The notes under the pieces are model-generated. The model did no database searches, was not told the origin of the DNA, and saw only the letters and a list, made by a program, of their open reading frames with translations. A DNA stretch of 64,000 bases from Psammoneis japonica (taxonomy: Eukaryota): assembly GCA_008632985.1 (NCBI GenBank), contig QPGO01000105.1, positions 62,001-126,000 on the forward strand, written 5' to 3'. Below are positions 23,391 through 64,000 of this stretch, piece by piece (within the stretch, counting starts at the first letter, position 1; every line of letters begins with the position of its first letter). A program made the translations under genes and the position numbers.

Positions 23391-23453
23391 GCATGTGCAC
23401 CCAGCAACAGAGTCACACTGCTCAGCAACAGAGTGTTTTGTTTTTGCCAATTT

Positions 23454-24900
23454 TCAACTGCCACTGGAACATTGTTCAGAAGCACCTTTGTCCATGGTGT
23501 GGACGGCGGTGTCGGTGTCAAACACCCACGTGTCCCAAATCGGGTCACGATTGTTGTTGCAAAGGCGCTTCTCTCGCCCAATCCTCTCACCTTCGGACAT
23601 GCACAGAAGTGGATTTTCCAAACCGCGCCACCTGCCAACATTTCAAATTGTGACAATGTTGGCACCACAGCAATGAGCCCACTGTGCTGCAGATCTTCTA
23701 ATCGAGTGACTGGAGCACACACCAAGACCAGCAGCCTTGAACAACTTCTTCAACTGTTTCACAAATGTTGAAGACCCAACCTTGCTCACAATCGGACCCG
23801 TCAACTTTCTCCACCACGAAGCTCCCAATGTTTCATCAACCAATGGATGGGGCAAAACCTCAAATCCTTGGTGTTGGCACAGAGCCGAACCTTGCACACT
23901 GGATGCTGAAGCTTGGGCCACACAGGTCGAGATTTCCAATCTGTGAATCCAACCATGACAGACCGTGGGAGCCCCTCCTTGAGACAGTCCCTCGAATCTG
24001 CAGGCAGCTCCAAGTTCTCAAAGTGAGGACAGAACTGAGTTGCATCTGACGAGCATGCAATCAAACCCATCACCAACAAAAAGCAAGCCCAAACCTGCAC
24101 ATGAGTGTTGCAGTTCCTGAAGATCTTGGTCCCAAAACAAGCGTCAAACAGCCTTGGCAGTTCTTTCTCAAACTCAATGACCCATGCCTGTGCTGGGACT
24201 GACTGTCCTTCCAAGTCTTTCATGAGCTTCTTGGCATCAGCATTCCTTTTGAATGGACCATGGCCAAATTGAATGAGAGTGCCAGATGTTGTTCCAAGGG
24301 TTCCTCGTGTGGAGCTGCACTTGTTCTTGCGGCCATCTGCTCCATGAATCGCGCTCTTGCTTGACATGTGCCTGATGCAGCTGCACACCAGTGGATTTGC
24401 AGGAGCAAGGATTTTTTCAAGTTGGCCTTGGGCTGGGTTGCTCACATGGCTTAGAAACTGTGCACATTCGCTCTCAGGATGAAGCAAGAGGACAAAGCAC
24501 TCGAAATTGTCTTGGCAAGTGACACGCCACGAGCCCAAGTTGATGTTGTGAGGAGCATGATGTGGGAACTCTGCGGTGTCCACAAGTCTTTCATCAAGCT
24601 CAGTTCTAGCAGTTTCTTCATCCTGATGTCCCACTTCTCGACCGAATCGATGGACTCGCGAGTCAATTTCACGTTTGGGCTTCTTGCCGGGAGTCGTCAT
24701 GACATGGCACTCTCATGTCGAACCCAACGGTTGCTGCTGTTGTCGAAACAATGGCAGATGCGGAATTCTTTCGAGCCCGTTGCCGGCAGTGGCACATTCT
24801 TTTTGGCCTTGTTCTTTCCTTCACTCGATTTGTGTTTTGGTGTTCCAGCTGCAGAGTGCGCCACCTTCTTGGCCCCCGTTCGTTTCTTTGTTTTTCCCAT
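23454..24900 (-). pseudogene. Tyrosine recombinase/integrase pseudogene
   Basis: LIA(C=R)SSD at 24053-24055, DLRFCPIHWL, HSIRRSAAQWA (HxxR, 23694-23708) and GRW...LL(C=Y)M (23601-23603) give the R..HxxR..W..Y catalytic series. Internal TGA stops and frameshifts. Confidence 0.8.
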
Positions 24901-25445
24901 CGTCGTGATGCGAAACAAAATCGAAAAAACACGAGAAAAATGAATCGAGCGAGGCTCTTGACGCAACACACTGGGACCCACGCAAGGCTGCAGGAGCACG
25001 CCAGAGCCTGCTGAAATTCCACTAAAACTGGGTCACGAGTGAAAGTGGCGCGACCACCAAAGATTCAGTTTGTCGGAGCTCGACGCGAGTGCGCGATTTC
25101 CGGTGAGAAAACCGTTAATCAACGGCAATCAGCCCCCCATCAATCAAGAAAAGTGCGCGAAACGCGCACTGACTTTTTGCGCGCGCGGCTCCATATCTGC
25201 GTCTGTCCACCATTCCACTTCGTTGAAACATTTTCAAAAATACAAATCTTGATATTTGGTAATTCAAATCCATTTTCAAAGCGCGCTGTCGTGATGCTCT
25301 GTAGAATTTGTGCTGACTTTCACATCCATGGCATTCGGATCCCATTGTGACGTACAATTCTACGCGTGGCGTCGTACTCGCACCGCGACAACACGAGAGG
25401 CGCACCTGCCAATTTTTTTTCATTTCAGTCCAGCCTCCTTTCACC

Positions 25446-28400: not shown

Positions 28401-31400
28401 CGATAAAGACTCTATCGACGGTACCAAACCACCACCATTTTCATCTGGGCCGGGTTTGTCTGGCGACGAAAGCAAAAGTGGGGAGGAATCTTCTGGACCA
28501 CCAACTGGCTTAGGTGGTGGCAACAAATCCCCTTTATCATCAGGGCCCGGTTTGTCTAGGGATGAAAGCTCAACCGGAGGTATGAAACCGCCACCGTTTT
28601 CGTCAGGGCCCGGTTTGTCGAGCGATAAAAGCTCTACCGGTGGTTTCAAACCGCCGCCGTTTCCGTCAGGGCCAGCTTCGGCGAGTGATAAACCATCTGA
28701 CCTAAAAGGTTCGGTGAAGCCTCCGCCGTTTTCATCGGGGCCAGGTTTGTCTAGCGATAAAGACTCTACCGACGGTACCAAGCCATCACCATTTTCATCG
28801 GGGCCGGGTTTTTCTAGCGACGAAAGCAAAAGCGGAGAGAAGTCTTCTGAACCTCCAGCTGGCTTAGGCGGTGGCACTAAACCCCCTTTGTCATCAGGAC
28901 CAGGTTTGTCTAGCGATGAAAGCTCAACCGGAGGTACGAAACCGCCACCGTTTTCGTCAGGGCCCGGTTTGTCGAGTGATAAACCATCTGAACTAAAAGG
29001 TTCGGCTTTCACATCGGGAGCGGGTTTGTCTAGCGAAAAAGACTCTACTGAAGGTACCAAGCCATCACCATTTTCATCGGGGCCGGGTTTGTCTGGCGAC
29101 AAAAGCAAAAGCGGAGAGAAATCCTCTGGACCACCAACTGGCTTAGGTGGTGGCACTAAACCCCCTCTCTCATCAGGGCCCGGTTTGTCTAGCGATAAAA
29201 GCTCTACCGGAGGTATGAAACCGCCACCGTTTCCGTCAGGGCCTGTGTCGAGTGAGAAGTCATCTGTCGAAAAGAGTTTTGGAAAGCCTTCACCGTTTTC
29301 ATCGGGCCCGGTTTTGTCTAGTGATAAAGGCTCTGCTGGAAGTAACAAGTCATCGCCTTTCTCGTCAGGACCCGGTTTGTCCAGTGGTACAGGTAAGAGC
29401 GACGAAAGCTCCGCAGGACCGGCAACTACTGACCAGACGAGCGCTCCAGATTCGTTAAATGATATAAGCAAGTCCGGAGATGGTGCTACTGCATCTCCGT
29501 TTGGCCTCAGTGGCGGCATTAAGTCACCTCCATTTACGTCCGGGCCAGGCTTTTTGAGCAATAAAACCAAGAGCGACGACAAAGCATCTGGAACTCCAAC
29601 TGGCCTTAGTGTCGACAAGCTTGGCGTTGGACAAGGCTCTGATGAGAAAGCCGCGCTTGATAAAGGCTTGATAAAAGAGGATGAGTCGTCAAGGAACGAC
29701 GATGATGAACCGGAGACTACGGCATCCGGCGAAAAGAGTGTTGGAAAGCCTTCACCGTTTTCATCAGGGCCAGGTTTGTCTAGCGATAAAGGCTCTACAA
29801 AGCCACCACCGTTTTCATCAGGGCCGGGTTTGTCAAGTGACAAAAGCAAAATCGGAGAAAGATCATCTGGACCTCCAATGGGCCTAAGTGGTGGTATAAA
29901 GCCGCCTCTGTCAGCAGGGTCAGGTTTGTCTAGCGACAAAAGCTCTACGGGAGACATGAAACCGCCACCGCTCCCGTCAGGGCCCGGCTTGTCGAGTGAT
30001 AAACCATCCGACCAAAAAGCTTCACCGTTTTCGTCGGGGCCAGGTTTGTCAAGTGATGATGGTCCAGCTACTAAGCCGTCACCTTTCTCATCGGGGCCGG
30101 GTTTGTCAAGTGACAAAAGCAAAAGCGGAGACAAATCTTCAGGACCTCCAGTGGGCCTAAGCGGTGGTGTAAAGCCCCCTATGTCATCAGGGCCTGTTTT
30201 GTCTAGCGATAAGAGCTCTACCGGAGGTTTGAAACCACAGGCGTTTCCGTCAGGGCCAGGTTTGGCGAGTGACAAGTCATCTGGCGAAAAGAGTTTTGGA
30301 AAGCCTTCACCGTTTTCATCGGGGCCGGGTTCATCGACCGCCGGAGGAACCAAGCCATCACCGTTCTCGTCAGCAACTGGTTTGTCCAGTGGAACTAGCA
30401 AGGGCGCCGAAAGCTCCACAGCACCACCAGCTGACCAAAAAAGTGATAAAACCGAGTCCGGTGATAGCGCCACTGGATCTCCGTTTGGCCCCAGTGGTGG
30501 CATGAAGTCAACATCATTAACTTCAGGGCCAGACTTGTCGAGTGGTAAAACGAAGAGTGCCGACAAAGTGTCTTCTGGACCCCCAATCGGTCTAAGTGGC
30601 GGGTTAAAGTCTTCGCCATTTTCATCCGCGCCAGGTTTGTCTAGCGATAAAAACTCAACTGGAGTGGTCAAGACACCACCGTTCTCGTCGGGACCAGGTT
30701 TGTCGAATGATACGAAGGATAGCAAAGAGAGCTCCACAGGCTCTCCGTTTGGCCTTAGCAGTGGCATGAAGTCGCCACCGCTAACGTCGGGACCAAGCCT
30801 TTCGAGCGATAAAACGAAGAGCGGCGGAAAGTCTTCCGGACCTCCAATTGGTCTAAGCGGTGGTATGAAGTCTCCTCCGTTTGCATCGGGGCCCGATTTG
30901 TCGATCGATAAAAGCTCTTCCGGAGGAACCAAGCAATCACCTTTCTCGTCAGGACCAGATTTGTCAAGTGATACAAAAAAGAGTAGCGACAGCTCCGCGG
31001 GACCACCAACTGGCTTCAAGAGCGGGTCAGATTTGTCCGGTGACAAAACCACGTCTAAGGATAGCTCTGCTGGATCTCCTTTTGGCCTTAGTGGCGGTAA
31101 CAAGTCACCAGCGTTTACTTCGGGGTCAGGTTTGTCTACCGGTGGCGATAAAACCACGACCGCCAAAAGTTCTGACACACCTCCAACTGGCCTCAGTGGC
31201 GGCATAGAGACCGGTCTTTCGAGCGACAAGTTGGGCAAGGGACAAGGCTCTGATGAGAAACCGCTGTCGGCGACCGATGTTGAACCGGAAAGGACGATGT
31301 CAACAGAAAATACTGCTGAACTGGAAATGTCGTCTGATTTCGAGGATACAGATGGTGAAGCGTCCTCCATTGATTTGGAACCAGAACTTTCGGAGGTAAT

Positions 31401-33599
31401 AGATGCTGGTCCTTCGTCAACTGAAATTGTGGACGCAGAGATATTGTCAGAATCGACAGAAACGGACGAAAAGGATAGCTCGCATATGGACCTTTCAGCA
31501 GCTAAAGAAACTGACGCCGAGGAGGACGAAGAAGCGGAAGTCGAAAGTGTACAACCAGAGCTTTCCTCTGAGGACAACGATAGTTTGAATTCCTCCGAGA
31601 AGGACAAAGCAGGCGACGATGGTTCGGAACCGGAGCTTTCCTCAGAGAAGAGCGACACAAAAGAAGACAAGGTAGGATCAAAGATTTTCGCGGACGGGGA
31701 CGAAACAGACAACGGTAATTCTGACGCGGACGAAGAAGCGGAAGACGCCAGTGTAGGACCGGAGCTTTCTGTGGAGGATGAAGAAGCGGACGTTGGCGAT
31801 AACAGTGAGCAACAAGAGCTTTCCGCCATGAAAACTAAAAAGGAAGAAGATCGCGTGCAACTTGAGCTTCCCGTAGATGAGGACAAAGCTGACGACGATT
31901 CTTTGAAAAGTTCTGTTTCGCTTGATTTGAAGGACAAAGACGACGCTCTATTGACTGATAAGTTCGAGCCTGAACTGACAGAATCTGTAGTCGACGGTGG
32001 AGAAAGTGCAGATGAAGGCGAAGATCTGCCAGAACCGGAGAGTTCACCGCCAGAGATTTCTTCCGAAGCAGTCGAGAAGAAAACCGACATCGGATCTTCG
32101 ACACTAGAATCTCTAGACGAAAAAGCATCACGCAAGCTTGCTGCTGGCGCCAAAGCTTCAGATGACGGCAAACCAGAAGCCCTCACTTTTTTCATGGATC
32201 AAGCAAATTCGGAGGATGATTCACGCATGAAGCAAGACGTTGCAGAACGCCTTGCGCCTACTCTGGCTGCTGCTTTTCGGGCAAGCGCTGACTACGACGG
32301 CGCCCGGGATAATTTGTTGAACGCACAAGACAAGGCAGAAAGGCGTATAAGTCAGAGTGAATTTTACAAACGAAAAGCAGCTGAGAAAATAGCTGAGTTG
32401 GAACGGGAATTGGAAGGAAAGCTCAAAGAGACGCAGGAAATGGTCGACAAAGAGGTACGTTGTAATCAGTCTGCCGCTGCTTGCCATTAGCGGTTGATTC
32501 ATCCTTTTAATCCCTATTGTCTTCTTGTTATTGCTAGATTGTGAAAATGATTCAAATGCTTCAAGTAGAAGTCGAATTGGAAGGACAGCGAGAATCTCAA
32601 ATCATGGACTTCATGACCTCACTAGAAGACTCGATTATTTCTAAAGAAGAAGATATCAACTACTACTTGGACATTGAAGAACAAATGTCAGAGCTCTACG
32701 AGAAGCTTGAGTCTAGTCCTGGCGCAACCCAGATCTATGAATTGATGGTTGAAAAGCGCAATTTGGCTGCTGCTGATAAGAAGATCCTGGGCACCTTGAA
32801 GGTATGCAGAGATGAACTAAGCGAAGTTCTCAAAGATGCTCGCGCTCGCGCAGAACGCACAATAATGGTCAAGGACAGTTTAGTATCACCCCTAGAGATG
32901 GAAGGTCTTGAGTATGAATGGGAAGACGTAGAAGATGTCGTCGAACTCCTCGACGAGGCCACAGATAGTGTGATTGACTCAGAAGTGAAAATGCAAGAGA
33001 TTCGTGAGCGCGTTAACGCAGCTTTCGGGGACAAGTCCAAAATACGAGGAGAAGCCGTTCCCAAGATGCTACAGAAGACGGGATTTGGAATCTCCAGAAC
33101 TGGCAAGACTAATGCACTTTTCGAAACCACTCATGACGTAGTGAACTTGAGTGACTTGGAGGATAAAAATGAGGCAGAGCTGCTGGGTGTTCTTGGAAAC
33201 GCACTTGGAAAGACTGCTACGGGAGCAGCCAAGGCAGCTGCATTTGGCCTCAAAGCTATATTCGACGCAGTGACCGATGAGGAAGTTTCTGAAGCGAGAA
33301 GGGAAGTAATCGAGAAATCATCAGAGGTGTCTGGAGCAGCTAAAAACATAAAGTCACCCAAGGACCTTGCAAGGGGTGAAGTGTTGAAGGATTCTGCTAA
33401 GTCGACTGGAGAGGTGTTGGGGGCGGTTGGAAAGACAGGAATGAAGATAGTGTCCACCGTTGGAAAGAAGGAATCGGCGCAAGAGGCTTCTACTGCACTT
33501 AAAGAAACCACCCAGGACCTTCGTTCTACTATCAATGCCGTCGCTGCCTTGACTGCGAAATACTTGAGGAAGAAGAAAGATCGCGAGGAGGAAAAGTAA
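25446..33599 (+). CDS. Very large (~2700 aa) putatively plastid-targeted, S/G/P/K-rich repeat protein with acidic region and C-terminal coiled coil
   Basis: Leader MGRWSLALSVLLVLAQHHESSDAF-VP (signal peptide plus ASAF-type motif). An unresolved frame change near 25660 (frameshift or small intron) leads into the 2308-aa ORF. A phase-0 GT-AG intron at 32455-32537 joins it to ORF 32538-33599. Confidence 0.8.
26990..31150 (+). repeat. Coding tandem repeats: about 50 copies of (S/P)P(F/L)SSGPGLSSDK, in part as 97-aa (291-bp) super-repeats
   Basis: Hand count of about 50 motifs in the translation. AAAAGCGGAGAG blocks at 27601 and 27892 are 291 bp apart. Confidence 0.92.
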
Positions 33600-41535: not shown

Positions 41536-41819
41536 GGTGAAAAATGTCACCACACGCACGACATGAAGTGAGAAAAAGTGAGACGGAATTTTTATAAGTT
41601 ATTCACTTCTGATCATTTGGAATGTTCATGTTGAAGTTCGGGGTTTTCATTGTATCTTGAAAGGGAGCATGTGCTTCTGTTTTTCCCGTTTTTGCTAGTT
41701 GCTACGTTCCAAATTCCAGATTCCCAAATCTTTTGATTCGCGGGTCGAAGAAACTCCCTCCAACACCAAAAAACACACGAACGCAACCGCACAAAAAATA
41801 CACACAACACACAGCATCA

Positions 41820-44800
41820 ATGAATTACCTTTGTTGTTCTTGTGCTGATTCAGGTAGTCGTCCATCTTCACCTTCACCACCAACCACCATGACATCCAGC
41901 AACAAGGAAGATGAATTGGAATCGATTGAACGTGAATTGTCTCAAGTCGAACGTGGATTGCAAGATGACACACCTCCTGCGGGTCGTGCCGCGTTTAATT
42001 CCATTCAGTCGGCTTTGGGAGAAGTTCGTTCTCATTTACAACGTATCCCTTCGAATTCGACAAGAGGACGTGAATTATCCCAACGACTGTCGACAGCGGA
42101 ATTGGCACATTCATCACGCATGCCATTAAATATGCTTCATGACGAATCATCGGTACAAGAACGACGTCAGAGTACGCGTGAACGATTACTCAATTCGTTT
42201 CGTCGTAATAAAACAATTACAAAAGATGATGAACAAGAAGAAGAAGAACACGTTCATGCTTCAACTCCAGCGACACATCGTCGTCGATCGAGTATGCTCT
42301 TGGCAAGTCGTCATCGTGCTAGTCAAACACAAGGCTTTCAACTCGAAGATGCAAATGGCAATACGAGCAATGCCATGTTGTTATCACCCGTCAGTGAAGA
42401 AAAAGAATTACAGTCCTCCCGTAAAAAGCAGGAGGATGACGATGAGAAAATGCCATCTTTTCAACAAGTTGTCGAACCACAAATGCTCTTGTCGAAACAC
42501 CAAGAGCGTTTTTTATCGTCATCCAGTTCCTTATCGGGATCATTACGAGAAACAACATCCAGTGATTCCATTGTCTATTCGTGGGGCGGTCCTGGTGTAG
42601 CGAGTCTCCATGATGACGATACGGAGCACAAGGATGCCATGGCTGCTCAAGTTTCCAAGGATTCCAGAATTGGCCGTCCCGGTGCACCCGCTGTCTTGTC
42701 GGTTGCCACATCTTCGAACCATACGGCTTGTGCCACGGCACGGGGACAAGTCTATACATGTGGCATTAATATCGATGGAGCCGTCAATCCCTCCACCAAA
42801 ACAAATCAATCACCAAGACCAACCTTATTGGAATCCTTGGGACAAACGACACGTATCGTTCAAGTCAGTTGTGGTTTCAACCATACCGCGGCGCTATCGG
42901 AGAATGGATCCGTTTTGACATGGGGTGGTAATCAACACGGTCAACTCGGTCATTATCGTCGTGCATCGGAAGAAACTCTTAATACATCCTTTTGTTCGCC
43001 AAAGGGTATGTTGTTGGGTGGTGGTGGTAAACGTGCTGCAGCCGTGGCGTGTGGAGACGGATTTACATTGGTATTAACGACACGCATGTCTGTCTTGGCG
43101 TGCGGCATTCCCGAATTGCCGGATACTCTGCTACAGAAAGTGAGAATATGCCACGATCCATTCCCTCCGTGGAGGGATTGCCCATTTGTAGTATTGCAGC
43201 AGGCAATCATCATGCCGTTGTCACGACGGTTCATGGGAGTGCCTTTGCGTGGGGCAAGAACCGCCATGGTTGTTGTGGACGACCTCATCCTGAAACCATT
43301 TCCTTGCCGTACCCATTCACATGCCAACATCAAGTAGTGACACTACTCCAAATAAGAAAAATATACAAGAGGAACCCTTTGCCAATTGGCGCAAATGGGA
43401 CGATCAAGCCATTTCATTAAAAATGACGTTGCCATTGTCCATGCGGCATGTGGTGACGAACATACCGTCTTGGTGACACGGTCGGGACGGTTATTGTGTT
43501 GTGGAAGCAATGAACGTGGACAATTGTCTGCAGTTATTGTTTCCAAACTTGATATGATGATGAATCGAATGCCATTATTACAAGCGTCCAACCCATTGAC
43601 CATCCTACGGAGGTTGTAAATTTGTCACGGCCGAAGCGGGAGACAACCATACGCTCTTGTTGGATAATGTCGGAGATGTGTGGTTATTGGAGGAGAAGAA
43701 CAAAAAGGATTGGAACGGGTCATTCAGGTCAAAATGTTTTGGCGATTGCGGCTGGTGGCAAGGCGAGTATTGCCGTGGCCAATAATGCCACACGGGGAAA
43801 AGCACTCCGTCGGCAGTTTTCCGTCACGCTGGAACCCTTGGCCGTGTTGGATGAGAGTCACACGGCCGAAAGCATGGAGGCCTTGTTGGAAACCGTGGCG
43901 GACGATGAAGCAAATAGCGACTTGAGTCCCGCCGGCAAGGAACTGGCGAGTCGAACACAAGAACTCTTGAGTAATCCTGCCAGTCTCAATAGTCTCTTTT
44001 TGAATCCGGCCGAACTCGATCACTTGTATGAAAAGCTAATGTCCACGGGCAATTCGAATTTTCAACAAGCCATTGCCAAGGCTATCGAAACTGGAATCAA
44101 AGAGGGCTTGGAGAAACTCCGGCCAGACAAGGCGCGCATGATGTATCCCGAGACGGTACGGTGCCTCTTGTCGTACATTAAGTTTTTCGATCGAAAAATC
44201 GAATCCAACAGTGATATTGTCTTTGATCGCTTGGGTGATTGTATTTCGGATCTCTGTGAAACCATGTTGAGTTTGCCGTTTGAAGGGTACACGGCGTTGC
44301 TGACGTGGGCCACGTCTGTTTGTTATCCTCGAGAGTTATTTGTCAAAATGCTCGTTCGTCCTCTTGTGGTGCAACTCGATGCCGCGCTCTTGATTGAGGT
44401 GGATGAGAATGGAGTTCAGCACAAGCACCTGTCGCGTCGTGCCATTCCCGTGATTGTGGCCGTGTTGCGTTGGTTCCATTCCGCGTCGGAACGAATTTCC
44501 GGGGTTGCCTTGCCACAAGACTTTTACAGTTCCGGCGTTAGTGAGATTCCAATGGAAGCTCTCTACGACGATTTGGCGCGTTACAAAAAGGCCACCAAGA
44601 ATCAACGCTCGACTCATTTCTTTCTCTGTGCCAGTCCATTCTTAATGACACCAGGGACCAAGCGTGATTGCTGCAGACGGAGAATCAGATTGAAATGTTC
44701 AAAATCATGACGCAAAACATGACCTTTAACGAGGAAGAAGGAGCTTATACGGTTGACCCCTTTTATGTTTGGAGATTGAACGAGATCATCTCTTGCACCA

Positions 44801-45807
44801 AACGCTGGAAAAGATCAAGGTGGCCAAGCCGTCCGAGCTTCGCAAAAAGCTTCGTGTGTCCTTCAAGGGAGAGGAAGGCGTCGATGCCGGTGGAGTTACC
44901 AAGGAATTCTTCCAACTCTTGAGTGAGGCGCTTTTTGATGTCAGTTCAGGTCTTTGGACGAGCCGGTTTGGTTCAGATATTACTTGGTTCAACTCGGATT
45001 GCACGTGGGATCTAGAAAGCTACGACTGACGGGTGTCTTGGTGGGACTAGCGCTGTACAATGGCGTCCTGGTGGATGTGCACTTTCCGGAGCCGTGTATC
45101 GCAAGTTACTGGGTCTGCCGCTTGGTTTAGAGGATTTGGTAGATGAAGAATTAAAGAAGGGCTTGCAACAGCTATTGGACTTTGAAGGCGAAGACGTGGA
45201 GTACATTTTCTGCATGAATTTCGAAGTGACGTGGTCCAATCTCGGCCAAGAGCAAAAGTTTGAGCTGAAACCTGGAGGTGCGGAGATTCCCGTCACCAAT
45301 GACAATCGAGAGGAGTACGTTATGTTGTATGTCAAGTGGCTCTTGGTGGACAGCATTCAACCGCAATGGGACGCGTTTGAAAAGGGACTTCACCGTGTCA
45401 TGGAGGGGTCAAGTCTTAACTTGTTTCGTCCCGAAGAGCTTGAGTTGCTTGTGGTCGGCACACCTGAACTCGATTTTGATGCGCTCCAAGCCAATACCGA
45501 GTACGAGGGAGGTTACGACAAGGACTCGCCGGTGGTTGTGAATTTCTGGCGCTTTGTCAAGGAGTCGCCGCTGGAAAGTCAAATCCAATTCCTCAAGTTT
45601 GCGACTGGAAGTAGTCAAGCACCCATTGGCGGCCTTGGCGAACTACACTTCAAAATCCAACGCGCGGGTCCTGACTCACCGCAGCTGCCCACCTCTCACA
45701 CGTGCTTCAATACGTTACTGCTTCCTGACTATGGCGACAACAGGGAGAAACTCGAGCGCCTACTGGGAAGAGCGATATTGGAATGCGAAGGATTTGGTTT
45801 AGAGTAG
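41820..45807 (+). CDS. RCC1-repeat plus HECT E3 ubiquitin ligase (HERC-like); frameshifted in the assembly
   Basis: RCC1 repeats (VSCGFNHTAALSENGSVLTWGGNQHGQLG, AACGDEHT) and a HECT domain (LRVSFKGEEGVDAGGVTKEFF, FRPEELELLVVG, LPTSHTCFNTLLLPDY, GFGLE*). Confidence 0.92.
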
Positions 45808-48889: not shown

Positions 48890-50000
48890 TTCCAACAGCA
48901 AGGCGGGCCCTGCACACGTTCACCCTTGCAATCCTGTCCCTTCTCTCTCTGCTTACAAGCCTCCCTCTTCACTCCCTTGCTTGCTCCTCCTCACCCCAGC
49001 AATGCTTGGCCCCAGCAGATCAATTCTGCCTCATGCTGCAGCACAAGCTGCGCCTCCCTGTCTCACCCTGCAACCTGGCTGAGCTCCACATGATTTTGAC
49101 TTTCTGGCAACAGCACTGCCGACTCCTGCCGTGATCACACTTTCAGCTGCTGGTCCCTTGGACACAAAACTGCCTTGTCCAAATGCCCTCTGAGATGGCC
49201 TCTTCACCACATTTCAAACACTGGCTCCCCTCTCTGGCATCTGCACACTGACTCTTCTGCGCCGTCATCCACCACAAACATGCCACCCTCTCGTGCCTCA
49301 CTCACCCCTCAAACACCCCACTGATGCAGACATTCAGCTCAACCCAGCAATGTTGCCATCCACAAACCTCCTCCACTTCACTGCTGCTGGCTTGGTGCCT
49401 GCCCCCACTTTCAACCCTTGTGTGCCAAGGCGCGCCACATGAGCACCAAGCAGAAGTTAGTGGAGCACACAAAGCTCAACATGAAGCAAACCTCACTTCC
49501 ACCCCAGATGATGCCGGCATCCACCTTGTTCCCTTTGCCGCTGACCACTTGGTGGGAGCTCCTTTGTGCTCACCCCGTCTCCGTTTTGCTCAGAGCCGAC
49601 CAAGAACCCCTTGCCCCTGCTCCACCCACCCCTCCTTGGACACCACTGAATCCTCCTTTCAACAACATCCAGCTGCCCATGCCACACATGCCTGCACCCA
49701 ACTGTTGCCATCTGCCATCCTCCTGGCTGCCACCGCCACCTGGAAAAATGCCTGTGTGCTGGTGCACGCTTTGGCAACTTGCTTGGCCCATCATCCCTTG
49801 TGCCTCTGCTGCTCCTTCACAATGGGGCCTTCAATCCTCAGCTTTGTGATTGCCAAGTCTGTTGCTGACCAACTCTCCCACCACTCCACCATGTTGCAAC
49901 CCAAACTTGCTCACCCCACCCTTGGACCCATCCTTTTCTCCACCTGCATGACTCACAGTCAGCTCCACCCATGCTCCATGTCTGTCCCTTCCCCCGGCGC
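48890..50000 (+). mobile_element. 3' remnant of a non-LTR retrotransposon with restriction-like endonuclease (CRE-like)
   Basis: HKLRLPV, DS(C)RDHTFSC..KTALS (resembles the DxxGDHxFxC zinc knuckle), PTDADI and LVPFAADHL.G occur in the order expected at the C-terminus of RLE-type LINEs; heavily decayed. Confidence 0.5.
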
Positions 50001-52750
50001 CACTGTGGGATGTTGCAAGTGAACTTCTCACACGTGTGCACAGGGCCCTGCTGCTGCTCCATGCTGCTCTCTGCTGGCAGAGAGCAGGTGGTTTCCCTGG
50101 CCAATGCCACGCTTTGATGTTTGGTGGTGGCACTGCAATGCCATCTGTCTTGAGTGCACACATGCTCCATTCCCCTTTCTAGATCTGCGAGTGTCTTGCA
50201 GGAGCAACAAATCAAAACTTGATTGGACTGCAACACAAAACTGTCACATGCAGTGGGGTCAAAAGATGTGGCAAGCGACACATGATGGGACACTTCTTTT
50301 GGAAGAGAGATTTGCGCCTTGTGCAGGAAATGGCATTGAGACATGACAGCAACACAATGTCACATTGTTGATTTTGATCAGAAAAGCCACTGTGCGTTGT
50401 GCACTGTTGTCAGAGACAAAGGCCAAATGATTGTTTCACACAAACATGGGCTCCCTCTTGTCATTTCATTGGAAAACATTGCGCACTGATCCAGGTCAAC
50501 CCGAATCATCCAACTCTCTTTCTTGCCATTGTTCTGCAAAAGCAAAGGCATCATGGGCTCTGCCCACTGCCAAACGTCTTGTTGGCTCCCACCATCACCA
50601 TTTGTGTGAAATTGTGAATGCGATGGTCTCGTTCAGCTTCTGCGACAACCTCCTGCTTCCAAATTGCATTGGTGATGCAGCAGCGCTCCTTCCTGGACCA
50701 AGGATGCAATTCGTTTGCCACCATGTCACGCAACATCAACACCACCGTGGGTGTCTGCCTTGTTCTTGCAGCCAGGTGCAGGCCAAGTCACAGAACCTGT
50801 CACAGCATTGCAAAACTTCTTGTGGCAGATCTGATCCATTCCAATGTGAAGAACCAACATGACAAATGCAACAACTGATGCTGCAATGAGTGGTGGATCT
50901 TTCACTGCCCAGTCAAAAAAAACTTTTGCCAAATTGCAGATGCCGCTCCAACTGGTCATGCCCAAGTCCTTTGCAAAGTGCAAGATCATGCACAAAAGAG
51001 GACCTTTCAACTCCTTGGCCACAGTTTTGCAAATCAATTGAGTCAGTTGGAGTTTGGTGTCAAGTTGAAACAAAGAGTGGTTTGAAGCCAGAAGAGGCAA
51101 ATCCAAGTCAATGTCAACCCACTTTTGGACATGTTGCATGGCAAACAAGGGAACCTTGTCCTCATCAACTTTGGCTGGCAAAACTGGACACTTCTTCATG
51201 GGGAGCTGGCGCCGCAAGTCACGGGTGCATTGCGTGGTGAGATTCATCAAAGCATCCTTGATGGTGGAGAGTGTGGTGACCACATCGCTGTTCAGGGTGC
51301 ACTTGGCACCCCAGGGGTCAAGCTCCATGAACAGAAAAATTCCACCCTCTGGACCTGGGGCTTGTGACCAGGAGCACAAGCGTCAACTCCTTTGTCCAAA
51401 AACAATTGCGGTGCTCCAACATTTGGGTCCTCATGTCCGGGCACAGGTTCAAAGCATGGAGGTGCACCCACACTTCATCTTTTGCTTGAGCAGCACCACT
51501 TTGCCTTCTTCATGTTCTTCCTTGTCTTTGCTCACAATGGAGTGCTGGCAACCAGTCACTTCCTCAATGATGATGTCAGCCACTTGCAGGGCTGGGTTCT
51601 GGGGACGGGCTTGCTGAGTGAGGTTCTCAAAAAATGCATCTGAGCCTTGCGGTCTTCACGCTCCTGCTGCTTGATGCACTCTGCAATGGCTGCTGGGGAA
51701 GTGGCTGCCAGNCCAATGAGAGTTGATGCATCACGGCGACGTGTCACAGCCTTTGAATGTCACAAAGGGCGTGACAAAAACAACCTTTTGTCTGCATGCA
51801 CGCTGCACAGGTTCAAAGCATGGAGGTGCATTTACACTTCATCTTTTGCTTGAGCGGCACCACTTTGCCTTCTTCATGTTCTTCCTTGTCTTTGCTCACA
51901 ATGGAGTGCTGGCAACCAGTCACTTCCTCAATGATGATGTCAGCCACTTGCAGGGCTGGGTTCTGGGGACGGGCTTGCTGAGTGAGGTCATCAAAAAATG
52001 CATCTGAGCCTTGCGGTCTTCACGCTCCTGCTGCTTGATGCACTCTGCAATGGCTGCTGGGGAAGTGGCTGCCAGCGCCTGCTGACATCTGTGTGTGTGA
52101 TTGCCAAGCATCATGGCATGAGGAGGTGAGTGTGGCATGCCTCCACAACTGGGCTCTGGATTGTGCAAAAGAGCAGGAGAATTCACAGGGGCCTGGCAAT
52201 GCACATGAGCTGGATGCTGTGCAGGTGGCTGCCAAGCAGCAGGGTGGACAGCCTCTCCAGTGGCGGCAGCTGGAGGATGGAAAAGGGGCTGCCTTGTTGT
52301 GGCGGCTGCAGGAGACACAAGAGAGACAGCCCGGCGGTGGAGTTGAAATCCGCAGTTGGCACTTTAAGCCCAGCAGCCCTTGCCTCTGGGTTGAAACTGG
52401 CAACATCATCGCATCTCTTCCGCGGTCTCTTCCTCCTCATGGCAGAAGAAGACTTGGCCTTTTTTGCCAGAGGTTGAACCGTGTTCTCAAAGACACTCTG
52501 TCCCTTGGCAAGCTCTTGTTGAAAGATGCCATCGAGCAGCTGGGACGAGCAGTGTGACACAACAATGGGCCGACTGAGTTGGGTTCTGTGCCGGCAGCTT
52601 TGCGCTCATTGTGAGATGATGATGTGGTTCAAGTTCTCAAGAGACTCACAAAAATGATCAGTCATGTAGAGGCTGCATCTTTTTCTTTTTTCTACGTGGA
52701 TCACGCCAGCCTGTCGAAAATTCCAAATCTTTTTAGTTTCAGCGCGCCGC
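48890..52750. other. TpA-depleted (hypermutated) repeat domain 3
   Basis: Only about five TA dinucleotides by eye in 48901-52620; normal TA content resumes on both sides. Confidence 0.9.
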
Positions 52751-57150: not shown

Positions 57151-60079
57151 ATAGAATCGTCGGAATTTGTGCACCACACACACCATCACTGAGAATCATC
57201 TTTCATTTGAAGACGTAGCTAGCAGCTATAGTTTTGACTTCAAATTAAGTGACACGCCAAACAAAGAACTACAGTCCATCATTGTCGTTTCAGCCAAGAA
57301 CAATGACTGGTGCTTTGGAAACCCTCATTCGGAGAGCATCGTTTGTCCTTTTGCTTCCAAAAAGAAGAAAGTCTTGACGGACAGCTCCCCCCATGCTCAC
57401 CAAGTTCTGGCGACTCGGACCGTGACTGTAACGGGAGCCATGTTTACCGTCTTTCCGTGCCTTTCGAAACATTAAAGGAGACATCAATTTGGTGGCCTCC
57501 AGGATTGAACGAATCTTGACAATGACATTTTCCATGGACATTGGTGTGGTCAGCTTCAATCTCGCCTTGGGTCGATTTGACTGGAGTCTTTTCCTTTTGA
57601 GTCCCATACACTGCTCTGATTGGGATTGGAAGAGCAGCGTGTTCTCTGCACTTTGTTGCTCTGTCAAATGATTTTGATGACAAGAAAACGTGGCTTGGGC
57701 TTCTGGTCAAAGATGTGAGTGCTTTGGTTGGTGACATGCTGCGTGACGGCTCGATTGTGACCTTTTGTGCGGGGGGCTGATGCGCAGAGGGTGACATTGG
57801 GGACTTGTTCTGTTGCTGACGCTTGCCACTGTTGCGCTCATGTTGTTGGTCTAAATTGAAATCCATGAATGGTTCTCTGCAGGTGACTTTTCGCCCGACA
57901 GCTCCGCCGAGCAGATTTGTGGCTCGTTTTTCATGTTGCTCAACATTGTGGTGGCAGTGTGAATCATTGGTTCCATTGCCTTGCTCATTTTCAAGAGCAA
58001 CAAAAAGATGGGAGAATGCAGGGACAGTTTGGAGACACTTCACGATTGCAGTGAAATGTGCCATTTTGATGACTCGTTTGAAAAAAATGCTGGGATCGCA
58101 ACTGCGACTTGAGTTCAACAATCGAGAGATTCATTTCTGACTTGTTTCTCTTGGTTGGCAGCTTTGCTTCCTCAGATGCTTCCATCCAAACCAATGCTTC
58201 TCTGACTGAACAGGAATTTGACCAGAACGAACATTTGCATCATCGAAAACTGCAAGCTGGAGACTTGCAGTTGATGAGATTGGCTTTTTTACAGAGTCGT
58301 CCCAGGTTGATTCAATCATCATCACCAGGCCCTGCCATGTCTTGAGATGCAGAGGAACCTGCAATTGATTGAATGCGTTGAGTGCCAGTTGTGTGACACC
58401 CATTGTTTCATGTGATTGATGCTGTGGAGGTTGATTTTGATGGCACAAGCAATTGGAGGTTGCAACGTGGACGTTGCTTCACCTGCACAACAGCCACACT
58501 GAACCACAGGGCAATGTCGTGGTTGTGTCAGACGATTCTCGAGATCCTTTAATGATCTGAGGTGAAAAACCATTTTGTTGTTTCCATTTGAAGAGCAGCT
58601 CATTGAAGAGTGCAGTGGAGACTCCAAGTCTTGTAAAATGAGCAAAAACGACCAAGTTGTCGGTGGCGCATTGTCTCAAATGCTTGGCATTTTACTCGTC
58701 CTCCTTCCAGAAAGTGCAAAAGGTGAATCCATCCTTAAAGAAGAACTGTCTTGATGGGGCAAGTCCTCTGAGGTGCCCAATGTTGCTTTTGGGTGAGGAA
58801 ATTGACGACAACATTAAAACATTGACCTCATGGCACCAGTCCAAAAAGCATCCATTGACAAAAATGATCAAGCAGTTTTGACGTTCTTTTTGACACAACC
58901 CCAATTCAATTGTCCTGGATTGTCATCAGGAAATGTTTGGAAAGAATTGGTTCATTTGAGGCATGTCAGATGGTGTTTGCATGTTCATTTCGTGTGCTGT
59001 GAATGGATCTGGTGAGCATCTGGTGCACCCCGAGACAAAGACAAGCCCTCTTTTTCTCCACAACCATGGTGACTTTTTGAGTGCCATGATGCCATTGCTG
59101 AGAAACTCGGACTCAAAACAAGGGATTGTTTGGGGTTGGAACGAAGGTTCCCAACACAACACAGTCAAGCTGAACCTCAAAATTCAGACTTTGTTGGCAT
59201 CAATTTTAAAATCAAGCACGTCAATCTGCACCAAAGGGGCTCGCTGGTGTTCCTGGAGGCGGGCTGGACAACATGCACACATTCAGTCAAAAGCTCCAGC
59301 ATGCTGGACATTCAAGAGCAGGATCAGACCGGGCCCTTGCAGGGAAAGAGAGCTCCCTGGGGTTGAAATGGACAAGATGCATGCATTCAGTTGCAAGCTC
59401 CAGCACACTGGGGAAGAGCGGGATCAGACCGGACCCTTGGAGGGCAAGAGCTCCACCACCCTGGGCATTTGGAAGCAGAGTCACCAATTGCAGACATTGG
59501 CAACCGCAAACTCAACCCTGTCTTTGATGTCACCCAGCCCAAGGCAGGCATTTGAGAGCACAGCAACCACTGTCTCGACACAGGACAGTGGGAATGGCAC
59601 GGTCTTGGCCAAATCTTGGCATGCAATGGCATTTGCGCGCAAATGTTCCAAAGCTTCTGCCTCTGCTTTGTGACAATGGTCAATGGTCTGTCACACCTCT
59701 TTGTTGAACCCTTGACAGTGCAATTTCATTGACGCCCAATTGCTCTGGTGAGAAGTTTTAGTGTGGGTGAATGCTTTCTGTGATTGGCATTGTCTCCCAG
59801 GGTTGTTCCACCTTTTTTTGCCATTGCAGCTTGCATCATGGTGGTCGATTGGGATGTTGTTCCAACCGGTGCAAACATTGCATGATTTTTTTTGTGTTCG
59901 GCCTTTGCTTGATGCTGTTTTCTGCCCCAATGCTGGCGCGAATGTCCATGGCATCCTTGGTGGCATGCTGTGCAATTTCTGTTTTCACTGCATTCTGCAT
60001 GTTGGATCACTCTGGTTGTGGCCTGGAGACTGTCTCAGGCAACGCAAACCACCTCCACTTCCAATTCCTTGCACGCAAC

Positions 60080-60560
60080 AACTTTGTGGGGATTCTGTTC
60101 TTAGACTTTTGCTCTTTGACCATGAAGAGAGACAAGGCTCTCCGACTTGCGGAGAAACCTGTGACAGCAGCAGTGACCCAACAGCCAGAAAGCAGGTGGG
60201 GCAAGAGCAGACTCGAGAGGGGATTTTCTCATGGCCAGAGACTGCCTCAGGCAACATGCATGCAGTGTCTTTGTGGGGATTCTGTTCTTGGACTTTTGCT
60301 CTTTGACAATGAAGAGAGACAAGTGACAAGGCTCTCCGATGACTCATGGAGAAACCTGTGACAGCAGCACCAACCCAACGGCCGCAAAGCAGCTGAGGCA
60401 ACACACTGCTTGTACAATGCTCTCTAGAGAGCAGACTAGAGGGGAATTTCTCGTGGCTGGAGAGACTGCCACAGGTGACGGAAACTGCCTCTGCTTCCAC
60501 TGCCTTGCACACAACATCTTTGTGTGGAGTCTACAATGTTCTTAGACCATTTTGCTTTGA
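60080..60560. repeat. Tandem repeat, ~187-bp unit, two copies plus a partial third
   Basis: CTTTGTGGGGATTCTGTTCTT(A/G)GACTTTTGCTCTTTGAC at about 60082 and 60269; a degenerate third copy near 60518. Confidence 0.8.
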
Positions 60561-60899
60561 CTGGCAGCAAAACTGCCACAATGCTCTGAGAGCACACTCT
60601 GTCACAGAGCGGGGAATTTCTTTGTCCTTGTCCAATGGCATCTGCCCATTCTCTCCAGCAGTGGGCGGTGGCATTGTTCACACACATGTGATGTGTGAGA
60701 TCACTCATCTCTGTTCTTGTGCATTTCCTTGGCAGTGCCAAACTTGCACATGTCTGGTTTGTTTGTCAAGAACAAGAATGACACATCTGGATTGTTGCTT
60801 GAGTTTGCCAAAACATTGGGCTACAATGCCAATGGCATGTCGTCCTGGTGGAGCAGACAGCGTCCGGCCCCATTCCAAGCTGTGCAGCAATGTTCATTT

Positions 60900-61700
60900 C
60901 AGGTTGCATGGCATTGAATGAAGCAGTGACATCCGTTGGTGAATGCAAAGCCTCTCCAATTTCCTGCAATGTTGTTGTCGGGCTCCTGCAACCTCACAAA
61001 GAGAGCCTTCTCAAGTTTGTCAGTGCCTGCAGCACGATTGTTGGGATCTCCGTCAGTTGGGTGCATTCATCAAGACACAGCCACTCCAATCTCGCAAGTG
61101 ACTCAAGCTCCCTTGGCAGCTCTGTGATGCCAGAGCAGCATCTTAGATCCAACATTTCAAGATTCACCAGATTCCCAACAGCTCCTGGCAACACTTCAAG
61201 ATGCGCACACAACTGTGTCAAATTGGTCAACTGAAACATTTCATTCGGAAGAAACATCAATCCATGACAACCATGCAAATCAAGGGAAAGCAGCCCACAG
61301 AGATTTTCAATTTCTCTTGGCAGCTGTGCAAGGGACTTGCAATGACATGATTCCAAGCGTTCCAGTTCTTGCAATTGTCCGATCTCCACAGGCAGTTGCT
61401 CAAGACTCGTGCAAAAACCAAGACACAGCTCACAAAGTTGCTGCAATTGACCAATTTCTGGAGGCAAACGAGCAAGATTCTTGCAGCGCAATGCTGACAA
61501 ACAAGTGAGCCGAGTCAACATGCCAATTTCATGCAGCAATTCAATCAAACTGCTGCACAGGGCCAGCCCAAATTCTCCTGCCATGACAAACTTTCATGAC
61601 CACTTTCGATTGCAGTGACACGCCTCATGTCCTCTTGCGTTCACCCAGTTGCCTGAGAAAGAGCTTGGAGAACTTGATCAGAAGGATCCACCTCATTGCC
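60900..61700 (-). pseudogene. Leucine-rich-repeat protein pseudogene (LxxLxLxxCxxLxxLPxEIG repeats), hypermutated
   Basis: ORF 60994-61584 has about seven 24-aa LRRs and no Tyr; LCELCL and LEWLCL occur where LYL is plausible. Confidence 0.8.
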
Positions 61701-63114
61701 ATGTGGTCGTTAGAGTTGCTCTTGATTTTACTTTGGATTGAAGGCAAGAAACAAAGTGGGGTGGCAGGCGCAGCAGCAACGGAGGCGCGCCATGGGCTGC
61801 TGTGCTGTGCTGCACGCATGAAGACGGATCTCATGAATTGACATTGGTTGATTTGCTGAATCTTCAATTCCTCATGTGGACATCAAATTTGAGTGCATGA
61901 TTGTCTTCATCAACCAAAGTGAGCAATTCTTGGTCCATTGGCTGTGCTTCTGTGGGTCAGCCGTGTGGCCATGCTCCTCAGACGCGCAATGACCGTGTGG
62001 CATCTCAATGACTTTGACACACTGCTGGACCCTCGGTGGTGGATGGCAGATGCTGGATGACAGCAGATGGCAGATGGGTGGCAAATCATGGCAGATGGCA
62101 GGTGCATGGTGTGAGCTGAATTGCGGGGGTGCAGCTTTGCCATCAGAGGAGGGCCAAATCTGCATCAAAAGGCAGGAGGGGCAAAATCTCAATGCTTTCT
62201 CAAAGTCATTTTGAATCCCATGACTTCTTCCTCCAGACCACACCAGAAGCTGTTGAAACAAAGAGCAGTGCGTGGTTGCTTTTTCTTGACAATTTGTTCT
62301 GCCACACTCTGTGCCAGCCATGTGCCAGCAACAGGAGCTCACACCCATCTTTCACACAAATGGCATGACCATGCTTCATCCTCAAAAAGGGGGGTGATGC
62401 TGTGCTCTGTTTCTTCAACCCCACATTGTTTGATGTCACAACTTTGAGAGCCAAGGTGAGACATCTTTCATGCAGCTTGGCCACTTGACTCTTTTCTTGT
62501 TGTCGTCAGCGGGACAACTCACCTCCAACCATGAAATGGGCTGAGTTGGCAATTGTGTCCATCAGAGATCCAATGTTGACATCTGCAGACAATTTGGCTG
62601 ATTTTGCACACATTGGACTCAACTTCATGGGGCTGGCAGGGGTGAAAGCAGGGTCATGTTTTTGATGAACAAGGGGTTTGAGATGGAGGGCAAAGTGCGA
62701 AGCTGGGGTTTGCAAGCCAGCATTGGAAAGCAATGCACCCAAAAGCACTGAGAGCATGCTCCAGGATTTTTTGCATCTCAGCCCATCTCTGTGACTGCAA
62801 AGCATGCTTGCTTGTTGGCTGTTGCCCCAAGCAAAACCAAATTGTTGACATTTCACATTTTGGCTCAACTGCAGCAACCAGAGTCGCGCGACTCTCTGGC
62901 ATCAATTTGTTCAAATCCAAGCATCTGCACTTGATTGTTGCAACCTGAGTTCACACTCAGGTGCATTTCAAAGAATTCTTTGAAGCATTTGCATTTGAGG
63001 CTTTCATGCAGTGTGTTGCACACATCTGGTTGCCAGGGCAATTCAAAGAGTGAGAAGTTCACAAATCCACTTGGTCTGCTGTGTAAAGTGACTTGTGTGT
63101 TGCACTGTTCTTTT

Positions 63115-63504
63115 GACGCGTTCCAGGTCCAGGTGGGACCTCGCACTGCTGAACTGTGACATTGACAGTTTTTTGAATCACGTCGCATGTCATGCATGTA
63201 GATTTCTACGTGATTTTTTTGACATTTTGTGTCATTTTGCAGTGCACTTGTTGAGCGATCCATCCAACAACTTTTGACATTTTTTGTTGCAGCGCGATTC
63301 TACAGTGTCTTGAGAATTGTGCAGGGCAGGCGCATTTGCAAAAACGTTGAGCAGCAAGAGGCTCAATTGCACCACAAACTTGGCTGTTTGTTTGATGTTG
63401 AAGACAAACACATCCATCAATGAAGCTCTCGTGCTGCGGAGCTCGCACGTAGAATTCCATGGGCCCAATGTCACACGGAGTCCCACCCAGGACTGGAGCC
63501 CACC
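63115..63504. mobile_element. 390-bp MITE, hypermutated copy of 15820-16208
   Basis: Aligns end to end with 15820-16208; 4-bp TSD TTTT (63111-63114, 63505-63508). Differences are dominated by TA to TG/CA and CG to TG/CA. Confidence 0.92.
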
Positions 63505-64000
63505 TTTTCATGCTGCGGTGCTCCTGATCAAATTTCTCAGGAACTTTTGTGAGCAGTCTTTCTTTTTGGGGCTGCAACAACGCCGTTGCCAGCTGCTTTG
63601 GGCAAGCCTCAAAACCAACCCTTGTTACTGCCGATCAAACACGTCGCCATGGAAGTTTCTGTTTGTGTTCCTTGGCAATTGCCCCTTCAACAAATGTGTT
63701 GTCTCACCTGTCAACCTCACAGCATGTTGGCAAAGACAAAGAAATGGCTGCAGGATGGTGTGCCAAAGCCAAACACCAGCCCATCACCAAGCTCTGCATT
63801 GTCTTTGCTTGGCTTGTCCTTTTGCCACCCTCCTTGCTGGCACATCATCTGCATGAAACTCCTGGTTGCTGCTGCATTCCATGACAACCCAAACTGCAAT
63901 CTGCATGAACAGCTTGTGAGCAATGGGCACACTCTGCCAAGCTGCTCTTCTGACACGCCGCTGAGGCACAAGCAGCTCACAACACTCAAAGAGCCAAAGA

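Follow-up and report, generated by a model that had tools for sequence, protein, structure and literature searches.

TpA-depleted blocks in a diatom chromosome, probably left by TpA-directed hypermutation alongside CpG decay

TpA-depleted blocks and what they contain

We report that a 64-kb stretch of the genome of the diatom Psammoneis japonica (GenBank assembly GCA_008632985.1, contig QPGO01000105.1, positions 62,001 to 126,000; here the window, with positions counted from its first base) falls cleanly into two kinds of DNA when the dinucleotide TpA (TA) is counted per 250 bp. Six depleted stretches, which make up four blocks (D1 to D4), comprise 29,108 bp, in keeping with the ≈30 kb that an earlier note on this DNA had estimated. 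They carry 118 TA (observed/expected ratio, O/E, 0.00-0.08) and 770 CG (O/E 0.27-0.78), and the O/E of TG and CA in them is 1.3-1.9. The four gene-bearing stretches (32,888 bp) have 1,234 TA (O/E 0.51-0.63) and 1,902 CG (O/E 0.95-1.07). At the density of the gene regions ≈1,090 TA would be expected in the depleted DNA as compared to the 118 found, and chance is therefore excluded. The depleted domains are:

261-13017, no strand: domain D1a, TA-depleted; TA O/E 0.08, CG O/E 0.43
13588-15819, no strand: domain D1b, TA-depleted, largely single-copy; TA O/E 0.06, CG O/E 0.39
16209-16842, no strand: domain D1c, TA-depleted; 0 TA in 634 bp, O/E 0.00; CG O/E 0.78
21980-25022, no strand: domain D2, TA-depleted; 11 TA in 3,043 bp, O/E 0.06; CG O/E 0.65
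48955-52666, no strand: domain D3, TA-depleted; 4 TA in 3,712 bp, O/E 0.02; CG O/E 0.27
57271-64000, no strand: domain D4, TA-depleted, running past the window end; TA O/E 0.06, CG O/E 0.37

Specifically, TA falls from 37.5 per kb in the gene regions to 4.1 in the depleted DNA and CG from 57.8 to 26.5 per kb, and TG+CA rises from 141 to 210 per kb; this gain (69 per kb) is close to the summed losses of TA and CG (33 + 31, ≈65 per kb). The right edge of D1c is sharp, with no TA in 16209-16842 and nine in the following 100 bp, and it coincides with a structural breakpoint, the match of a related contig ending at 16844. At the left edge of D3 dense TA ends at 48954, and the next TA is met only at 49458. 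Moreover, tyrosine makes up 0.09% of the residues in reading frames of at least 90 amino acids in depleted DNA vs 1.6% in normal DNA. Genes of host type (Na/H exchanger, MYND/ARM protein, TPR, MFS, RCC1-HECT ligase, PHD fingers, MATH-BTB) are all situated in normal DNA and none of them lies in a depleted block.

Part of the target consists of transposons. Four short, non-coding elements with terminal inverted repeats and 4-bp target duplications (15820-16208, 63115-63504, 13022-13587 and 22607-22866) are miniature inverted-repeat transposable elements (MITEs). These and the other features assigned within the blocks are:

15820-16208, plus strand: MITE copy A, young, unmutated, very high copy; 29 TA (O/E 0.96), 29 CG; target duplication GGCC
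63115-63504, plus strand: MITE copy B, hypermutated in place with its flanks; 4 TA (O/E 0.15), 16 CG; target duplication TTTT
12826-13796, plus strand: MITE-like element C, old, hypermutated, split by a younger insertion (halves 12826-13017 and 13590-13796)
13022-13587, plus strand: young TA-rich MITE, 566 bp, nested in C; ends GACGTGTTCCAG, target duplication GTGT
22607-22866, plus strand: small MITE, 260 bp, related family; target duplication GACA; TA O/E 0.23
23475-24891, minus strand: putative decayed tyrosine-recombinase (Crypton-like) transposon gene, three frame pieces
60997-61593, minus strand: LRR-type reading frame without tyrosine, inside D4; Pfam LRR_14, E 6.2e-21

The terminal inverted repeat of A and B begins GACGCGTTCCAG, and both copies, with 4-bp target duplications, are true MITEs; the terminal repeats of 22607-22866 are 27 nt long and 96% complementary. 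The ends of element C align with A and B, and its halves have TA O/E of 0.17 and 0.14. The MITE nested in it has 47 TA (O/E 0.80) and is surrounded by TA-free DNA. In other contigs element C is uninterrupted, with 13017 joined to 13588 without the insert. The families at 15820-16208, 13022-13587 and 22607-22866 share a terminal motif, ..GTTCCAG..CCAGGTG.., and no autonomous partner was seen in the window.

The recombinase remnant in D2 was recognised by a phmmer search of 1.8 billion proteins with the frame 23804-24712 (minus strand) as query, which returned 146 relatives (best E 9e-67). Residues 5-472 of the closest relative cover 23475-24891 on the minus strand (tblastn), and the AlphaFold model of this relative (pLDDT, the predicted local distance difference test, 84.9) matches Cre (E 4.5e-6, template modelling score 0.61 on target), XerH and lambda integrase. 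In the family (31 sequences) R277 and R399 are invariant and H396 and Y431 nearly invariant; the family of 23475-24891 hence combines the predicted tyrosine-recombinase fold with the R-H-R-Y residues. The Pfam family Phage_integrase was found below cut-off only, in 4 of 12 sequences, and a search of PDB sequences with the recombinase profile gave nothing relevant. Pfam detected no reverse transcriptase domain, which marks DIRS/Ngaro elements, in the reading frames of D2. On the strength of the gene and of the fold modelled for its closest relative, D2 is predicted to hold a tyrosine-recombinase transposon, now dead and Crypton-like. CryptonS elements have been reported for a diatom (PMC3212892).

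For the 145 reading frames of at least 90 amino acids in depleted DNA, Pfam returned no transposon or viral family, and the LRR frame was the sole strong match; this frame may derive from a host gene family and be hypermutated, or else belong to a mobile element. D1a has tandem repeats (1575-5500) and, further on, moderately repeated DNA (7043-13000), and its frames of at least 90 amino acids match no Pfam family; the same applies to frames of that size in D3, where the frame 50729-51382 has no homologue by word-based homology search. D3 and much of D1 are thus without assigned content, and among the 145 frames there are no viral hallmarks, while transposon remnants are present in the blocks. 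The suggestion in the earlier note that the signature is confined to transposon and repeat domains is supported in part, by the recombinase remnant in one block, several MITEs and the multi-copy DNA at 7-13 kb; the depleted DNA also comprises ≈1.7 kb that is TA-free and single-copy-like, D3 with no identified content and the LRR frame in D4.

Direction, context and timing of the changes

MITE A (389 bp) and MITE B (390 bp) were compared by global alignment, in which 336 of 390 columns are identical. The 28 ungapped TA of A read CA (15), TG (8), TA (4) and GA (1) in B, and a 29th, which adjoins an indel, reads TG. The 29 CG of A read TG (9), CA (4), CG (15) and CC (1). Both tallies agree with those made by hand in the earlier note (24 of 29 TA changed to TG or CA, four kept and one altered otherwise; 13 of 29 CG changed to TG or CA). 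The reverse direction is nearly empty, with 21 of 22 TG and 20 of 21 CA of A being the same in B. Changes of the type A>G/T>C fall on TpA in 23 of 28 cases, and three of the five elsewhere are at ApA. That few other positions differ, as the note also stated, is borne out: beside these five there are three C>T/G>A changes outside CpG and eight transversions overall. The four TA kept in B all lie within TCTACR/CGTAGA, inside palindromes; sites of this type were retained in 4 of 8 cases vs 0 of 20 elsewhere in the pair (Fisher p = 0.003).

Five independent tests agree in showing TA and CG to be the ancestral states, and the polarity is secure. (a) A reads CTAGG in both terminal repeats, and B reads CCAGG in one and CCTGG in the other, so the former CTAGG site no longer pairs between the terminal repeats of B. 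(b) The internal direct repeat CTCGTACTAC is present twice in A, and the corresponding copies in B are CTCGCACTGC and CTCGTGCTGC. (c) One site reads CGATAG in A, TGACAG in B and CAATGG in C. (d) Adjacent double differences between tandem copies in D1 are CA/TG swaps in 12/32, 3/3 and 5/8 cases, vs 0/7 in a coding repeat of the normal region. (e) The recombinase remnant has Cys, Thr, Ala and Cys at columns that are conserved as Tyr, Ile, Val and Arg, respectively. The agreement of the five tests bears out the core of the earlier note, an A:T-to-G:C mutator acting at TpA in particular domains and separate from CpG decay; the direction is opposite to that of fungal repeat-induced point mutation (RIP), i.e., C-to-T at CpA, which raises TpA.

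The last of these tests used 12 of the 146 relatives, and 22 of the 146 served as a reference set, in both cases picked as the longest good matches. There is no Tyr among the 303 residues of the remnant, and the 12 relatives have 2.6-3.7% Tyr. At the six columns with Tyr in at least 6 of the 12 relatives the remnant has Cys (TGY) four times and Phe twice, and the column that is Tyr in 12/12 relatives is TGC (Cys). Two conserved Ile are ACA (Thr), two conserved Val are GCA (Ala) and an Arg present in 12/12 relatives is TGC (Cys). For the C-terminal piece (23475-23801), compared by eye only, the Tyr of Y.AEG appears as Cys, the Arg of RRCG appear as His and Cys, and one Arg appears as a stop. 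Among the 146 relatives, one has 0.57% Tyr and five have none at all; the Tyr-free public relatives are P0208, P0224, P0266, P0273 and P0323. At Tyr-majority columns these six carry Cys or His in 11 of 14 covered positions, and the 22 reference relatives have Tyr 107, Phe 21, Trp 13, His 5 and Cys 1, which argues that other hypermutated copies are present in public data, called as proteins.

The loss of TA depends on its neighbours. Context counts omit the partly depleted edge at 261-1799 (the AA count given below includes it). Relative to the gene region, an imperfect baseline for noncoding repeat ancestry that makes these figures rough, 1.2% of TAT, 7% of TAC, 11.6% of TAG and 21.5% of TAA are left. 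The 98 surviving TA are in TTAA (26), CTAA/TTAG (22), GTAA/TTAC (18), CTAC/GTAG (13), CTAG (8), GTAC (4), ATAA (3), ATAC (3), ATAG (1) and ATAT (0). Sorted by the number of strands on which the A is followed by a 3' pyrimidine, the survival is:

3' pyrimidine on no strand: 56 survivors, 208 in normal DNA, rough survival 32%
3' pyrimidine on one strand: 35 survivors, 650 in normal DNA, rough survival 6%
3' pyrimidine on two strands: 7 survivors, 376 in normal DNA, rough survival 2%

The MITE pair, in which individual events can be followed, has a 3' pyrimidine on the mutated strand in 18 of 23 events and on the other strand in 9 of 23. Informative sites favour the 3' pyrimidine by 10 vs 1 in the MITE pair and 5 vs 1 in the recombinase gene, together 15 vs 2 (p = 0.001); with five further events the score is 17 vs 5 (p = 0.008). 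Moreover, the product trinucleotides TGC and TGT rise most, in an accounting that likewise has the gene region as baseline. The mutated A thus tends to have a 3' pyrimidine, T[A]Y, and this preference suggests that the agent reads the two strands singly. Along the MITE the TA outcomes also cluster by strand (7 runs, permutation p = 0.03).

CpG decay runs alongside the TpA decay and is only partly coupled to it. When TA and CG outcomes in the MITE pair are pooled the strand clustering is gone (p = 0.57), which together with the clustering of the TA outcomes argues for two processes. CG is retained to 37-59% in all four contexts with no comparable neighbour effect, and the CG O/E ranges from 0.27 to 0.78 between blocks that all have TA O/E of 0.00-0.08; CG loss hence varies independently.

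Copy number was estimated by placing read-derived contigs on the window at 80% likeness and summing their depth. Single-copy DNA has a summed depth of ≈65-140, and the stretch 7043-13000, with 660-2,437, is multi-copy. The nested MITE (26,000-62,000) and MITE A (146,006) reach ≈900 and ≈2,000 times the single-copy depth. The stretch 14258-15700 in D1b is single-copy (depth 70-114) and yet TA-free, and one contig of 1,711 bases matches D1b with one other letter; in all, single-copy depleted DNA extends over 13.9-15.7 kb. The depleted sequence is reproduced by contigs from a public read set with no other letters over 399 and 1,189 bases and one over ≈1,690 bases; this agreement rules out assembly error.

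With respect to timing, the nested MITE interrupts the hypermutated element C, and MITE A is missing from a second copy of its flanks. Both TA-rich MITEs thus lie inside TA-free DNA, which argues that mutation preceded their insertion and that they are still untouched. The second copy (of 15587-16844) was seen in the read sets; it has 24 other letters in place of MITE A and is ≈11% different. As it passes into unrelated sequence at either end, it may represent a paralogue and not the second haplotype. Of its 21 listed differences, nine have TG/CA in the window vs CG in the other copy, one is the reverse and one is a TA in the other copy; that they are mainly CG to TG/CA with a single TA suggests that CpG decay continued after TA was exhausted. 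A contig piece at 15305-15351, at high depth in two runs, has TA at five TG sites of the window, all on the same strand.

Explanations, precedent and significance

As a whole, we hold the following explanation to be clearly probable. Certain chromosome blocks would have been hypermutated in place, with A changed to G where it follows T, on either strand; TpA would thereby have become TpG or CpA nearly to completion, ≈90% of it being removed relative to the neighbouring genes. The target blocks would be old transposons (MITEs and the Crypton-like tyrosine-recombinase element), other repeats and the DNA between them, ending sharply beside untouched host genes, and the preferred target would be an A with a 3' pyrimidine, 5'-T[A]Y-3'. 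A second, partly independent process would have converted CpG to TpG/CpA in the same blocks, as 5-methylcytosine deamination would give. Young and abundant MITEs within the blocks are unmutated, which suggests that the process was episodic, or slow relative to MITE activity. The pattern, its polarity and limits, the context bias and the fact that transposons form part of the target are direct observations on the window. As to the chemistry, deamination of adenine within DNA to hypoxanthine, which is read as G, would account for the change, and a role in genome defence is suggested. By analogy, the mutator would be regulated and locus-targeted and of one kind with that of the chlorarachniophyte Bigelowiella natans.

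Before 2026 we know of no cellular process that targets its own chromosomal DNA with A-to-G changes. In two viral inserts of B. natans, 230 of 231 de novo changes were A>G/T>C, all on TpA; the rate was ≈1,000 times the background, mutations arose in 11 of 15 mutation-accumulation lines only, and 124 TpA-poor clusters were found genome-wide, with an ADAT2-like deaminase proposed (Mettrop et al., bioRxiv 10.64898/2026.01.13.699255). The available text makes no mention of diatoms, CpG or trinucleotide context. The earlier note knew of no description of such a process as genome defence; this has been overtaken by the preprint, which reports TpA-to-TpG/CpA hypermutation of integrated viral DNA, but remains valid for diatoms, for which no report was found in the literature, including a term search of two diatom transposon papers.

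In both B. natans and the window A:T changes to G:C at TpA, giving TpG or CpA by strand, with TG+CA going up as TA goes down; here the A>G/T>C changes are likewise concentrated on TpA, and in the recombinase gene TAY has become TGY, ATA has become ACA and GTA has become GCA. In both, the changes are confined to discrete blocks, there of non-host DNA and here in part of transposons, with host genes spared here, and the activity is not constant (some lines there, young insertions spared here). The TpA-poor coding sequences of B. natans are enriched in reverse transcriptase and DDE endonuclease domains. There are also differences. The host there is a rhizarian chlorarachniophyte, here a stramenopile diatom; the process here is fossil but near saturation, with TA O/E of 0.00-0.08 vs 0.45 in the viral insert there. 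The targets here are MITEs, a tyrosine-recombinase element, unassigned repeats and single-copy DNA, and there giant-virus and virophage DNA. The available text does not mention the strong CpG decay seen here, nor the T[A]Y preference and the strand runs. On the best reading, the window shows in a diatom, beside CpG decay, the TpA-directed hypermutation that was lately described for a chlorarachniophyte. What it adds is the preference for T[A]Y, the runs by strand, the fact that single-copy DNA is affected too and the fact that young MITEs are spared.

Fungal RIP likewise makes transitions in a fixed dinucleotide context, on both strands and in segments, and ruins transposon genes, but its CpA to TpA changes raise TA, which here is destroyed. 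RIP in ascomycete fungi depends on sequence duplication and on a premeiotic stage; here single-copy DNA is also affected, and the short elements with the highest copy number are spared. The earlier view of the process as repeat-targeted in the sense of RIP is not borne out, given that the most abundant MITE copies stand unmutated inside depleted DNA. APOBEC3 and ADAR footprints are also deaminase-type transition clusters in mobile elements, but they affect the cDNA or RNA of retroelements on one strand, as compared to DNA transposons with their flanks on both strands here. ADAR favours a 5' U and is reported to prefer a 3' G, in contrast to the 3' pyrimidine preferred here. CpG decay of methylated transposons shares the change of CG to TG/CA (CG O/E 0.27-0.78 vs ≈1.0 in genes) and accounts for the CG half only. 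CG methylation of diatom transposons depends on DNMT5a, and a diatom DNMT4 that is related to the fungal RID, and for which no function is known, is taken here as a lead only (Hoguin et al. 2023, PMC9998398).

Intact high-copy MITEs together with depleted single-copy DNA do not fit a rule of "more repeated, more mutated"; the trigger may be chromatin state, homology with spreading, or foreignness.

Several points weigh against the explanation favoured here. It is drawn from standing sequence and not from mutations followed as they arose. For the reason given above the survival figures are approximate, and some of the surviving TA may be new mutations and not survivors. The five further events added to the 3'-pyrimidine score are of unsure polarity, and split 2 vs 3 on the rule. 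When A, B and C are aligned together, the same derived state is found in B and C at 3 of 4 common TA sites; this may reflect common descent or a context-fixed outcome rather than independent hits. Unlike in B. natans, there is no viral gene among the 145 depleted-DNA frames, and block D3 is without identifiable content by Pfam and homology search. The ≈1.7 kb of depleted DNA that looks single-copy is ill-suited to a purely repeat-triggered process. Finally, the only read set that matches the window may be the assembly's own source, so that the agreement with it does not imply independence of platform.

Among the alternatives, the one that fares best is error-prone patch repair, in which deamination of 5-methylcytosine would give a T:G mismatch and a Pol-eta-like polymerase would miscopy T at WA, changing A to G. 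WA is a known hotspot of Pol eta; CpG and TpA decay do occupy the same blocks, and three of the five A>G/T>C changes outside TpA in the MITE pair are at ApA. We nevertheless consider it unlikely, since ApA is undiminished (AA O/E 1.27 in depleted vs 1.20 in normal DNA), TA loss is near complete where CG loss is mild (D1c, TA O/E 0.00 and CG O/E 0.78) and TA and CG outcomes lack mutual strand coordination; nor does the TpA process of B. natans have a reported CpG component, the term CpG being absent from the available text.

A primary lesion on thymine appears a shade less likely again. Here T would be modified at TpA, e.g. to 5-hydroxymethyluracil by an enzyme of the TET/JBP type, and mispair with G, so that T changes to C and the motif is R[T]A. 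The data do not distinguish between the two partners of the A:T pair as the site of the lesion, dinoflagellates carry 5-hydroxymethyluracil at TpA and TpC, and CpG and TpA are both pyrimidine-purine palindromes in which the change can be expressed as one 5' pyrimidine replacing the other. There is no evidence here for such a modification of T, and the loss of CpG does not vary correspondingly with the 5' neighbour, 37-59% being retained in each of the four contexts.

That the polarity is reversed, the TA-free state being original and the TA-rich MITEs having arisen by RIP-like C-to-T changes at CpA/TpG, is very improbable. It would explain why B and C agree against A at 3 of 4 TA sites, but all five polarity tests oppose it and T-to-C changes making 13 new CpG would be needed as well. 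Moreover, the TA-rich MITE copies are intact and very abundant with matching terminal repeats, and 29 kb at TA O/E <0.1, including a Tyr-free recombinase gene, is implausible as a native state. A sequencing or assembly artefact, or RNA editing followed by reverse transcription, is just as improbable: the window is a scaffold with a 785-N gap and the sole matching read run may be the assembly's source, but contigs built from reads agree exactly with long pieces of the depleted sequence, at high word depth, and changes in DNA transposons and single-copy flanks, on both strands and with sharp borders, exclude both base-calling bias and an RNA intermediate. An origin as foreign DNA that was TA-free by nature was considered and rejected, as was biased gene conversion, which is not TpA-specific.

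A wider version of TpA-directed hypermutation, to which we give only tentative credence, is that diatoms carry the same single-strand, T[A]Y-specific A-to-G DNA editing defence as the chlorarachniophyte. This would be an old system, possibly spread across SAR (stramenopiles, alveolates and rhizarians), acting episodically on silenced mobile DNA alongside CpG methylation and erasing nearly every TpA, with an unrecognised DNA adenine deaminase as effector. If so, the near-total loss of TpA would leave invading elements without Tyr codons and with only one of the three stop codons.

The B. natans report concerns a single rhizarian alga with two viral inserts; if the same signature, at saturation, marks a further algal group that is unrelated and ecologically dominant, the process would appear widespread and not a curiosity. 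If the process is shared, a TA O/E near zero together with an excess of TG+CA would be a cheap genome-wide marker for other genomes, and T[A]Y on one strand would give a sharper specificity for testing candidate deaminases. There is also a practical consequence: hypermutated transposons lose Tyr codons and TAA/TAG stops, so that long false frames are called by gene finders and the elements escape domain libraries. In the present case no transposon match was obtained for the 145 frames before the phmmer search of 1.8 billion proteins.

Neighbouring genes and minor observations

Two 271-bp copies that are 98% alike are situated at 51441-52075 around a single N at 51712 and may represent an assembly duplication at a closed gap. 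A search of sequencing runs for the window gave one study with three runs, and no RNA run was listed. Read run X2 gives no cover over 5600-15219, which is not readable as transcriptional silence. In the normal DNA, 25534-32487 (plus strand) is a single open frame of ≈2,300 codons made of ≈291-nt tandem units (87% matches) with no Pfam family, and the opposite strand is also open over ≈1,900 codons.

An RCC1-repeat and HECT ubiquitin ligase (HERC-like) is encoded by several exons at 41661-45804 (plus strand), and its HECT domain is 65-82% identical across diatoms. No nearly identical protein is on record; the protein matches place the window in a diatom whose proteome is absent from the database, and not in B. 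natans. A metagenome scan with the HECT protein gave two loci only (11.2 and 1.7 kb, TA O/E 0.42-0.95), too little DNA to judge other diatoms. Specifically, the HECT domain (45016-45804) has 65-73% identity to Fistulifera, Thalassiosira, Nitzschia, Skeletonema and other diatoms and 56% to brown algae, with a best match at 82% identity, and the MATH-BTB protein also matches diatoms.

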